Positions 3,722-47,999 of a DNA stretch of 47,999 nt are shown one piece after another. Each line of letters opens with the position of its first letter. Position 1 is the first letter of the stretch. Source of the stretch: Candidatus Hodarchaeota archaeon (lineage in GTDB: Archaea > Asgardarchaeota > Lokiarchaeia > Sigyniarchaeales > SOKP01). The position numbers and the translations under genes were made by a program. The DNA is taken from contig JBHLJY010000018.1 of NCBI GenBank assembly GCA_048887225.1, forward strand, positions 1 through 47,999, in the 5' to 3' direction. The notes under the pieces are model-generated. The model was not told the DNA's origin and ran no database searches. It worked only from the letters and a program-made list of their open reading frames with translations.

Positions 3722-3825
3722 CGGGCCTGGCAGGATTCGAACCTGCGACGTCGGGTTTGGCAGAAATTCTCACCAAAAATCCCAGTCCGAAGCCGGGCAC
3801 CCTATCCAGACTAGATTACAGGCCC
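3722..3825 (-). tRNA. tRNA-Arg(TCG) with a 29-nt intron in the variable region (~45/46; 3750-3778)
   Basis: Acceptor GGGCCTG/CAGGCCC; anticodon arm CCCGG-CTTCGGA-CTGGG; T-arm GCAGG-TTCGAAT-CCTGC; extra 29 nt forms a relaxed BHB; no encoded CCA. Confidence 0.9.
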
Positions 3826-44513: not shown

Positions 44514-45149
44514 ATGGTTAATATTGGTTTGCTTGGGGATATAAGTGTTGGAAAAACTTCCATATTACGTTTATTTGTCAAATATTTAAATAAGGGAGAT
44601 ATTGAAAAAGTAGAAGGCGGAAAGAAGTGTACCGTTGTTAAAACTGACTTTAGTGGAGAAGCTACGGTCCCAGGAGGTAAAAAAGAAGACACACTCAACG
44701 AAAAAGAAACGAAAACTATTCATCCAAACCGAGTCGTTTTCCGTGAAGATGATTCTAATAAGGCTCACACCTTATTCGCCCCAGGAGGGGATGCTAGACG
44801 TGCAGTCGTTAAAATGGGTATTATAACAATCTCTAGAATAGCTACTCAAATCATAGCTGTGTTTTCAATGGATCGCAAATTAACTACTCAACTTGAATTT
44901 TTCAATAATGTTAGATTCTTTCCAAGAAAAATTTATGCATGTATTAATAAAATTGATTTACTTGAAGGAAATAAAGCTCAAAAAGAGAAGAAAATCGCTG
45001 AAATAAAAAAAAAAATTACAGATTCGTTCCAAAAAAGGAAAATAGATATAGAGGAGATTTTTATAACATGCGGAGAAACTATTGAAGGATTTTCTGATAA
45101 CAATGATGCAGTGGCTCAAATGATATTAAAAATTTGTACAAGTGCTTAA
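44514..45149 (+). CDS. Atypical small GTPase (Ras/Arf/MglA-like)
   Basis: G1 GDISVGKTS, G4 NKID, G5-like TCG; G3 reads FAPGG instead of DxxG. Confidence 0.8.
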   Translation: MVNIGLLGDISVGKTSILRLFVKYLNKGDIEKVEGGKKCTVVKTDFSGEATVPGGKKEDTLNEKETKTIHPNRVVFREDDSNKAHTLFAPGGDARRAVVKMGIITISRIATQIIAVFSMDRKLTTQLEFFNNVRFFPRKIYACINKIDLLEGNKAQKEKKIAEIKKKITDSFQKRKIDIEEIFITCGETIEGFSDNNDAVAQMILKICTSA

Positions 45150-46170: not shown

Positions 46171-46575
46171 TTAGGAGTCAATTTTAAATTCGCTCTCTAA
46201 CAATTCCAAAATTTTATTAAATTGTTCATTAATAATACCATAATATGTAAACTTCCCTTTTTTCCACCCTCGAATTAAACTGGCTCCTTCAAGAATCCTT
46301 AAATGATGGGAAATCGAGGATTGAGATTTATCCAAAGCTGCTTCAAGTTCACAAACACATCTATCTTTTATTTTTAATATTTCAATTATTTTTAAACGCT
46401 CTTCGTTGCCTAAAGCATTAAAAAATTCAAATTTTTTTATAAAATTCCCTTGGAACTTTAAATTTTTTCCTAATTCATGTAAATTCTTGTAATATACATT
46501 CTCATCCGAGCATTCATCACAGCTACATAACATTTTTTTAATCTTTTCTAGACGTTTAGCTTTAATAAAAACCAC
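46171..46575 (-). CDS. ArsR/SmtB family transcriptional regulator
   Basis: ALGNEERLKI, CVCEL (alpha3 Cys pair) and SQSSISHHLRIL; extra N-terminal CSCDEC. Confidence 0.9.
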   Translation of the reverse strand: MVFIKAKRLEKIKKMLCSCDECSDENVYYKNLHELGKNLKFQGNFIKKFEFFNALGNEERLKIIEILKIKDRCVCELEAALDKSQSSISHHLRILEGASLIRGWKKGKFTYYGIINEQFNKILELLESEFKIDS

Positions 46576-46728: not shown

Positions 46729-47466
46729 ATGAATTTTTTAAAAGTGATTTGCATCATAAAAAATAAAAAATTAAAAGTAGGAGTAATTACAGATGGGAAA
46801 TATGGGGAGAGAGCTTTCACAAATATAAATAAAGTCTTTGATACCGAATGGATTGTAGTTCCAGAAATTCCCTCAAATATAATTCTTGATGACGAAATTG
46901 AGCTTGAAGTTCCTGAATGCGATGTTTATATATCTTATGTTCGACATCCTGATATTATTTTACAATTAGCAGAACTTGAAAAGCCATTAATATTGGGCGT
47001 CCTGCCTGGTGATGGGCTCCTTAGACAAGCCTTAAATATAAATCCTAACGTTGTTCATGCTCAGACAATGTGTTCTTTAGAAAATAATTCTGGAATACCT
47101 GAAATTGACGAATTTACGAAGTTTTTTGGCAAACCTATATACGTGCCAAATATAAGTAAGGAATTAATTATTAAAGATATTAGAGTTAAACGCTCTTCGC
47201 TATGCGGGTCATCTGAAGCCGGTGCAAAATTTTTATTAAATAAATCCTTGAACACCGAGATTCTTCAGAATTTTGCTTTAAGCGTATGTCACGAATGCCG
47301 AGCTCCTCGATTTGGTCGTACATGTGATAAAGAGGTTGCGGGAATTATTCACCTTAATTCTCTTTTTAATAGCTTTCCTCAAGAATTAACTAAAAAATTT
47401 GACCAGAATTTATTAACTTTCATTGAAAATATGAAAAATGAATATATAAGAAGAAAAAATAATTAA
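46729..47466 (+). CDS. DUF166-like Cys-containing protein
   Basis: GKYGERA, HPD, CSL, EF...FGKP, V.RSSLCGSS and C.ECRAPR...CDK...G.IH. Confidence 0.7.
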   Translation: MNFLKVICIIKNKKLKVGVITDGKYGERAFTNINKVFDTEWIVVPEIPSNIILDDEIELEVPECDVYISYVRHPDIILQLAELEKPLILGVLPGDGLLRQALNINPNVVHAQTMCSLENNSGIPEIDEFTKFFGKPIYVPNISKELIIKDIRVKRSSLCGSSEAGAKFLLNKSLNTEILQNFALSVCHECRAPRFGRTCDKEVAGIIHLNSLFNSFPQELTKKFDQNLLTFIENMKNEYIRRKNN

Positions 47467-47487
47467 AAAAAGGAGGTTGGAATTAAT

Positions 47488-47745
47488 ATGGATGATAGAA
47501 TCAGGGTATTAATAGGTTTGGCTACTGCTTATGTAGCAAAGTGTAAGCCTTGATTTAGTCATTTTGCAAATCAAGCTAAAGAAATCGGAATTAGAGATCA
47601 AGAAATCATAGATGTTGTAGAATTAGCAAAAAGAGTGAGGCAAGGGGCAATGAACCAAATGGATCAGTTTTTAACAAAAAAGATTAGCCTTATTAATAAC
47701 TCTGCTGATAACAATTCACAAACCAGGTGTGGATGTAGCCAATAA
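47488..47745 (+). CDS. AhpD/carboxymuconolactone decarboxylase-like selenoprotein candidate (CKPU; UGA at 47551-47553), 85 aa
   Basis: AGGAGGT SD; LIGLATAYVAKCKP-UGA-FSHFANQAKEIGIRDQEIIDVVELAKRVR fits the CMD pattern across the UGA; downstream SECIS. Confidence 0.85.
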
Positions 47746-47768
47746 ATTGGAAAAAACTTATAAAAATA

Positions 47769-47812
47769 TTTGAATGATATCTTTTAAAAAATGTTAGTAA
47801 AAGATTGACAAA
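47769..47812 (+). promoter_or_regulatory. Eukaryote-like SECIS element in the 3' UTR
   Basis: TTTG-A-ATGAT-ATCTTTTA-(AAAAATGTTAG)-TAAAAGAT-TGA-CAAA: AUGA/GA core, 8-bp upper helix, A-rich loop. Confidence 0.75.
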
Positions 47813-47999
47813 AGGATCGCATCCTATTAAAACTTTTAACAAAAAAAATTAAAAAAATCAAAAAGAAAAACTAAATATTAAATTAGGTTACTCTAAATGA
47901 ATGAATCTGAAATTGGAAAAAGTTCAGAAAGTAAAGATGTAGGAAGAAAAATTAGTTTTTTTGAGAAATTTCTTCCTGTATGGATTATATTATGCATGG

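Follow-up and report, generated by a model that had tools for sequence, protein, structure and literature searches.

A predicted AhpD/CMD-type selenoprotein with a eukaryote-like SECIS element in an arsenic gene cluster of an Asgard archaeon

Is an in-frame TGA at codon 22 of a small reading frame in an Asgard archaeon read as selenocysteine (Sec), and what might the resulting protein do among the genes that surround it? The frame lies near the end of the window, by which we mean the whole stretch of 47,999 nucleotides that was analysed (contig C18 of genome G000, which has 3.27 Mb in 49 contigs, 30% GC and an estimated completeness of 98%), and the initial annotation had described it as a hidden AhpD/CMD-like selenoprotein missed by gene callers. 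The features on which that description was built were all seen, namely ATG at 47488–47490, TGA at 47551–47553 within C-K-P-TGA, 63 sense codons and TAA at 47743–47745, and the read-through translation came out exactly as first written. By chance, 63 open codons past a stop would be expected in ∼0.5% of cases, an estimate that takes ∼8% stops per random codon at 30% GC. A standard ORF listing of 47488–47745 gives solely a 36-aa GTG fragment that starts at 47635, and therefore gene callers would miss the following arrangement (the end coordinate 47745 counts the stop codon in):

47471–47477, + strand: Shine-Dalgarno-like AGGAGGT, 10 nt before the ATG, read from the sequence
47488–47745, + strand: predicted AhpD-like selenoprotein gene, 85 codons plus TAA, with a minimal CMD/AhpD fold, C19-K-P-U22 and a C-terminal CGCSQ
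47551–47553, + strand: UGA, predicted Sec codon 22, opposite the second Cys of CxxC in homologs

Sequence comparisons make it very probable that this interval encodes an 85-residue Sec protein, decoded through a SECIS element in its 3′ UTR and consisting of a minimal CMD/AhpD core, for which we propose a redox role in the surrounding arsenic cluster. The hidden selenoprotein of the initial annotation is thereby upheld by a conserved TGA, a Cys column opposite it, purifying selection, a SECIS found in TGA forms only, and the presence of Sec machinery.

The TGA is conserved at codon 22 in 16 of 16 further loci, which come from sediment metagenomes and one NCBI Promethearchaeota MAG and are 55–89% identical. 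Among 5.8 billion proteins searched, five full-length homologs were found (55–88% identity), all of them with CKPW at the motif, together with one ‘hypothetical protein’ of 59 residues, from a Promethearchaeota MAG at NCBI, that starts after the motif; the DNA of all the CKPW homologs and of the 59-aa call has TGA at codon 22. The five public CKPW proteins are flagged ‘with_TGA=W’, and their W is the work of gene callers that picked a TGA=Trp code on short contigs, while the NCBI 59-aa call is a truncation. Misannotated members of the family are thus L054 (GCA_048938425.1, JBHLMF010000373.1, 1355–1612), of which the NCBI call covers the last 59 residues only, and L051–L053 and L057–L059, where metagenome pipelines give the Sec codon as Trp. 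Searching metagenomes with the family alignment brought in 7 more loci from sediment, all with TGA at codon 22; the same alignment found none in species-representative genomes, and a single-protein search for related loci in genomes and metagenomes found none either. The orthologs carry GAAGG or AGGAGG at the same place as the Shine-Dalgarno sequence of the window. Among 60 related genomes the Sec form is present in G000 only, and therefore the gene is patchy.

The initial annotation had pointed to Cys-containing homologs aligning at the UGA, with conservation 3′ of it, as the support to look for, and these exist. Three full-length, stop-free relatives with an invariant CxxC were found in the 60 related genomes, with Cys opposite the TGA, and in two of the three the MDQF block further on and the CGCS(Q) at the end are shared as well, so that conservation runs through MDQF and CGCSQ. 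L025, L026 and L027 all have Cys in column 22, as do most members of the wider family. Moreover, pairwise dN/dS (dS from 0.2 to saturation) was 0.07–0.59 for codons 23–85, similar to the 0.04–0.63 of codons 1–21, and therefore the sequence past the TGA is kept as protein. These data bear on the possibility of a pseudogene or of an assembly or sequencing error, in which a Cys codon TGT or TGC has turned into TGA and nothing is made beyond codon 21. Such a change would need one base, and Cys forms do occur in related genomes, but a base-calling error is implausible when 16 further loci, drawn from several independent metagenomes and one NCBI MAG, carry the TGA as well, and a decayed gene would not be expected to show purifying selection past the TGA or a dedicated SECIS conserved downstream in TGA forms only; we regard this explanation as extremely improbable. 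In the tree, which was rooted at the midpoint and built on 87 columns, the 10 Sec forms make up one group (100/95 support) beside Asgard Cys forms of the same genus, and this points to a single origin of the predicted Sec form from Cys forms inside the Asgard archaea.

Downstream of the stop codon, the following elements were found:

47762–47838, + strand: full extent of the SECIS covariance-model match in the 3′ UTR, 53.4 bits, E about 7e-10
47769–47812, + strand: eSECIS-like K-turn element, 28 nt past the stop codon and 220 nt past the UGA
47813–47825, + strand: small hairpin AGGAT-cgc-ATCCT directly 3′ of the SECIS, seen in alignments

The covariance model (R1) was made from the seven other SECIS elements of genome G000 with the AhpD-like locus left out, and its next-best match in the 48-kb window scored 13.9 bits. 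The element has a lower stem TTTG/CAAA (47769–72 with 47809–12), a core of AUGA (47774–77) and GA (47807–08), an upper helix of 8 bp (47779–86 with 47798–805) and an apical loop of 11 nt (AAAAATGTTAG, 47787–97). Only the covariance model and a strict geometry (AUGA, N, 8-bp helix, 11-nt A-rich loop, 8-bp helix, N, GA) discriminate, as a loose SECIS pattern was unspecific (77 matches vs 47 in a shuffle); the strict genome scan gave 8 elements vs about 1.2 in shuffles. Of the eight sites, one follows SelD, two follow HdrA/FrhD clusters, one a VhuU-like peptide, three unannotated TGA-containing ORFs and one the AhpD-like gene (47774–47808), and the loop of this last site is one base off the SelD SECIS loop of the same genome. 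Most of the eight share traits that the scan did not demand: AUGA is preceded by (T)TGA and GA is followed by C, the two forming a short lower stem of the kind seen in K-turns, and a small hairpin lies directly on the 3′ side. That hairpin after GA-C is seen in 7 of the 8 genome elements and in orthologs, with none evident after the HdrA/FrhD element on contig C8, and no description of it was found in the available text of the Asgard SECIS paper (PMC11227280).

Wherever orthologs have enough 3′ sequence, the R1 model finds a match of 40–54 bits just past the stop codon, and on three Cys-form loci, a natural negative control, it finds no SECIS match. In a model-fitted alignment of 19 distinct elements, pairing in the upper helix is 100% and compensatory changes occur at 8 of 8 pairs. 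The element thus combines the AUGA_GA core, A-rich loop, 3′ UTR position and covarying helix of an Asgard type I eSECIS-like element, and according to the available text of Huang 2024 (PMC11227280) Lokiarchaeial SECIS have an AUGA_GA core, an AAAAA apical loop and a position in the 3′ UTR. The neighbouring DUF166 and ACR3 genes were considered as users of this element and rejected, and because neither has an in-frame TGA the SECIS at 47769–47812 can only serve the AhpD-like gene.

A further possibility is that translation stops at UGA-22 and that a separate protein of ∼59 residues is made downstream (cf. ACFFAN_17340). The NCBI 59-aa ORF, which begins at an internal Met in L054, and the GTG-initiated 36-aa ORF at 47635 of the window would fit two such products. 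The internal start is unconserved, however, and the window has no Met there; codons 1–21 are themselves under purifying selection and form helix 1 and the first Cys of the CMD motif, the split would cut the CxxU motif in two, and the SECIS would be left without a purpose. Hence we consider two products very unlikely.

The Sec machinery, which the initial annotation had wanted confirmed in the genome, was located in G000 as SelD, SepSecS, EFSec, a PSTK candidate and tRNA-Sec. SelD has one in-frame TGA of its own, SepSecS scored 490 bits, and EFSec/SelB scored 249 bits and lies 5 kb from SepSecS; the PSTK-like gene is of full length but scored 156 bits vs a curated cutoff of 290, and is a candidate for this reason. 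The tRNA-Sec gene of G000 was missed by Rfam RF01852, by ARAGORN in default and relaxed modes, by a GC-island scan and by two cloverleaf scans. Clear tRNA-Sec genes were found in 13 of 25 genomes of the same family, and these, used as BLAST queries, led to a gene on contig C4:

C4:44554–44702 (outside the window): tRNA-Sec, 74 nt upstream of SepSecS, with two 30-nt inserts

The inserts are placed in the D-arm (44571–44600) and the T-loop (44659–44688), with boundaries inferred from the alignment, and without them the tRNA is 89 nt long, identical to a relative's at 81 of 89 positions, and folds as a 9/4 cloverleaf with anticodon UCA. A search of three genus-mates yielded no tRNA-Sec, for which inserts may be the cause as well. 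Because a tRNA-Sec with two inserts escapes Rfam and ARAGORN, the Sec trait is under-counted in these genomes by standard tRNA-Sec finders as well as by homology-seeded selenoprotein searches. As a side observation on tRNAs, a match of 104 nt (Rfam, 48 bits) at 3722–3825 on the − strand of the window exceeds the normal length and probably contains an intron, and the ARAGORN total for the whole genome was 32 tRNAs.

The machinery is also relevant to the idea that TGA now codes for a standard amino acid, Trp or Gly, as in codes 4/25. Its one support is the set of five database proteins with W at position 22, which are calls on contigs of 0.6–1.6 kb, where the choice of code is unreliable. Genome-wide, 299 of 2,110 long frames (at least 200 codons) end in TGA; past it, the median frame stays open for 7 codons and only 13 of the 299 do so for at least 60, and frames in the standard code cover 80% of the genome DNA; genome-wide recoding was rejected on these numbers, and TGA is a normal stop. 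Moreover, the homologs have Cys, not Trp or Gly, in this column, and the locus has a SECIS and the genome a full Sec machinery, which leaves reassignment with almost no probability. We therefore return to Sec insertion, in which UGA-22 would be decoded by machinery of the archaeal/eukaryotic type (tRNA-Sec, PSTK, SepSecS, SelD and EFSec) under the direction of the eukaryote-like kink-turn SECIS at 47769–47812.

What kind of protein would be made in this way? Taken alone, the AhpD-like protein scored 22.9 bits against Pfam CMD (PF02627) vs a cutoff of 23, and 8 of 10 family members matched the same model (E 0.01 or better; best E 3.3e-12); the match to the CMD/AhpD pattern claimed in the initial annotation is real. 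Compared with the PDB, the family profile matched 7y4r at 4e-8 and also 3bey, 1vke, 2cwq and 5dik, CxxC falling on CxxC, and C19 and U22 align to the CxxC of 7y4r and 3bey. The AlphaFold model (mean pLDDT 82, and >93 for residues 1–50) has three helices, places C19 and U22 at the N-terminus of helix 2 (helix 20–32) and leaves CGCSQ on a disordered tail; the top 26 Foldseek hits were all CMD/AhpD proteins (TMq 0.50–0.72 overall; TM 0.57–0.72 and rmsd 1.5–2.2 Å for the best), with modest E values (6.7e-3) for this short model. The domain is incomplete, covering profile positions 21–66 of 84 with the N-terminal helices absent, and the proton-relay His of CxxCxxxH is out of register, as His25 stands at +3, not +4, and is Asn in L054. 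Thus, from the initial annotation of an AhpD/CMD-like thiol reductase, the selenoprotein and the CMD fold are retained, but a full AhpD is replaced by a minimal three-helix CMD core, and a generic thiol reductase is probably too broad a description for a gene whose fixed context is an arsenic cluster.

The compared CMD/AhpD structures were M. thermautotrophicum O27018 (3bey), TTHA0727 (2cwq), RclX (7y4r), TM1620 (1vke/1p8c) and M. tuberculosis AhpD (1knc). With these solved proteins the predicted protein shares the helical core and a CxxC position at the start of the same helix, in residue-for-residue alignment. The solved proteins are Cys proteins of 92–177 aa with extra N-terminal helices and CxxCxxxH, whereas here the N-terminal part is missing, the His is off register and a disordered Cys-Gly-Cys tail has been added. 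The CGC tail is conserved. An exhaustive profile search gave 1,806 representatives, for the most part CxxC proteins of ∼85 residues or tandem forms, and a Cys-rich tail is present in over half of them. The nearest are either unnamed proteins of Promethearchaeota or entries with the generic call ‘AhpD family’, and no curated equivalog cutoff is reached by any of these.

The weak NCBIfam matches point to families with an AhpD domain, and several of these are selenoproteins of bacteria, where AhpD-like CxxU selenoproteins have been described (PMC13188914). One is the GSU3128 family of Deltaproteobacteria, a ‘distant AhpD homolog’ and CxxU selenoprotein (NF041047; PMC13188914), which resembles the present protein as a stand-alone protein of ∼84 residues with an AhpD core, a CxxU with Sec in second place and existing Cys homologs. 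GSU3128 is bacterial and has an in-frame SECIS, whereas here a 3′-UTR kink-turn SECIS, a CGCSQ tail and an ars cluster were found, and at 16 bits vs a cutoff of 110 the protein is a non-member (the nearest Cys relatives scored 21–28 bits). The bacterial ArsM/AhpD-domain families, which are tied to arsenite methyltransferase, are among the best curated matches for both the AhpD-like protein and its Cys relatives. In NF041537, the ArsM/AhpD-domain selenoprotein, the C-terminal AhpD domain is matched by residues 2–51 with CxxU at the same site (18 bits vs 510, covering the AhpD domain only and not the methyltransferase domain); in that family methyltransferase and AhpD domain form one fusion protein, whereas here the AhpD-like protein has a gene of its own, with ArsM two genes downstream. 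TIGR04169, an arsenosugar-associated peroxidase-like family, gave 22.2 bits vs a cutoff of 120.

Seven Asgard selenoproteins with eSECIS-like elements, SelD, FrhA, HdrA, FrhD, Prx-like, an AhpF-N homolog and DsbA-like, are given in the available text of Huang 2024 (PMC11227280); a 2026 review repeats the seven-family list (PMC13188914), and Sun et al. 2021 had HdrA, Prx and MvhD only. The claim that no AhpD type is among the known archaeal selenoproteins agrees with what is available of both the Huang paper (PMC11227280) and the review (PMC13188914), and full-text literature searches found no report of an archaeal AhpD/CMD selenoprotein. As far as these sources go, the present case shares with the Huang 2024 families the decoding system and the SECIS type (AUGA_GA core, AAAAA loop, 3′ UTR), and differs in belonging to another protein family and in being linked to arsenic resistance, not to energy metabolism or general redox (PMC11227280). 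Like the AhpF-N and DsbA-like proteins, it appears to have arisen recently from Cys homologs by gaining a SECIS that resembles the resident ones. By these sources, the predicted protein is the first archaeal selenoprotein of AhpD/CMD type, with a eukaryote-like SECIS and an arsenic context, and it would add an eighth, unannotated Asgard family to the seven published ones, which in the available text belong mostly to hydrogenase/heterodisulfide energy metabolism and general redox. It also offers a clean natural case in which a recent Cys-to-Sec change is coupled to the gain of a eukaryote-like SECIS, and is useful for the question of how SECIS elements spread.

The role of the protein has to be considered from its neighbours, which in the window are the following:

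46171–46575, − strand: ArsR/SmtB-family metalloregulator, divergent and first gene of the cluster (HTH_5 5.9e-14; NF033788 78 bits)
46729–47466, + strand: DUF166 protein of 245 aa (PF02593 100.7 bits; weak match to NF041372, ‘DUF166 family (seleno)protein DfsP’)
47897–47999, + strand: start of the ACR3 arsenite efflux gene, which runs off the window to C21:1048 (TIGR00832 262 bits, cutoff 282.8)

Contigs C18 and C21 join by an exact overlap of 77 nt (window 47923–47999 = C21:1–77) through which the ACR3 frame continues, and an ArsM gene (NF008823 357 bits) follows ACR3 on C21. The cluster reads ArsR (−), DUF166, the AhpD-like gene with its SECIS, ACR3, ArsM, a Sec-Sec ORF with a SECIS, and a GDCCVxC (seleno)protein with a SECIS. 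The assembly break lies inside this ars cluster, within the ACR3 gene, and possibly reflects strain variation. DUF166 precedes the Sec gene in 10 of 10 loci with upstream sequence (gap 21–47 nt). L054 and L065 likewise have ArsR, which is again upstream, ACR3 and a methyltransferase, and L065 adds a Ras-family GTPase. The DUF166 protein has five invariant Cys, in MCSLE, SSLCGSS, C-[HY]-[ED]-C and TCDKE; it is all-Cys here, and a Sec form (DfsP) exists in bacteria. Although ArsR, ACR3 and ArsM are present, no Grx-type ArsC (PF03960) was found in the whole genome, and for the low-MW-phosphatase type of ArsC the whole genome gave weak matches only (≤36 bits vs a cutoff of 174). The closest Cys homologs keep the CGCSQ tail and lie in a MarR/hotdog-protein context, not in ars clusters, so the fold and the tail are not specific to arsenic.

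The CxxC of AhpD acts as a thioredoxin-like disulfide reductase, and turnover of ArsM produces a disulfide that needs re-reduction. In bacteria, ArsM is fused to a CxxU AhpD domain (NF041537), and this Rosetta-stone hint suggests that the domain works with the methylase. Taking fusion, AhpD chemistry and ArsM disulfide together, we infer a role as a selenol/thiol oxidoreductase; its arsenic side is drawn entirely from gene order and bacterial domain fusions. In the proposed mechanism, C19-x-x-U22 at the N-terminus of helix 2 would occupy the position of the redox-active CxxC of AhpD, and the protein would cycle between a selenol/thiol and a selenenylsulfide as a small disulfide (or arsenical) oxidoreductase for the ArsR/DUF166/ACR3/ArsM cluster. 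The likeliest roles would be that it re-reduces the catalytic disulfide of ArsM, or that it reduces arsenicals and hands them over for methylation or export. DUF166 would be the probable redox partner, and the flexible CGC tail may serve as a mobile shuttle or as an As(III) ligand. For this whole proposal, an oxidoreductase that serves arsenic methylation or reduction with DUF166 as partner and the tail as shuttle or ligand, we see about an even chance.

The protein may instead be a true selenoprotein with a general antioxidant function, as an AhpD-type partner of a peroxiredoxin or as a hydroperoxidase, in which case its place in the ars cluster would be coincidence or would reflect co-regulation under oxidative stress. 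The CMD/AhpD fold and the conserved CxxC position are consistent with such a function, some sources call the family alkylhydroperoxidase, the nearest Cys homologs lie outside ars clusters, and arsenic itself causes thiol and oxidative stress. However, the DUF166/ACR3 neighbourhood is found in all Sec-form loci with enough flank, no peroxiredoxin adjoins the gene, and among curated families the nearest relatives are AhpD domains that are either fused to arsenite methyltransferase or linked to arsenosugar synthesis. These observations make a general antioxidant rather unlikely, though a good deal more credible than a stop or a recoded TGA at codon 22. In a wider and more tentative version of the arsenic role, which we think somewhat doubtful, the cluster would be an Asgard selenium-dependent arsenic module, in which the CxxU protein and DUF166 supply the missing reductase (for arsenate, for methylarsenate or for the ArsM disulfide) together with the downstream Sec-Sec and multi-Sec GDCCVxC proteins, and in which selenols bind and pass on As(III). 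If true, this would be a pathway-level use of Sec that has not been described in archaea.

Additional TGA-containing frames were observed downstream on C21 and elsewhere in the genome. At C21:∼1903–2355 (L049) an unannotated ORF has two adjacent TGA codons (HAD-U-U-ADN...), and its ortholog at L065:9223–∼9652 reads SDA-U-G-U-U-AK...; conservation extends past the TGAs, a SECIS lies a few nt after the stop codon, and the ORF had no match in Pfam or NCBIfam. It is a candidate for a new Sec-Sec protein family in the ars cluster. At C21:2444–2620 (L049), a small Zn-ribbon-like ORF with several in-frame TGAs is followed by a SECIS at C21:2665–2699, and it scored 40.5 bits vs a cutoff of 40 against NF041374, ‘GDCCVxC domain-containing (seleno)protein’. 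Finally, a small membrane-anchored ORF with GGG-U-G-C-S is present at C14:29931–30200 (L047:1932–2201) with a SECIS at C14:30222–30256, and its UGCS is similar to the CGCS in the tail of the AhpD-like protein.
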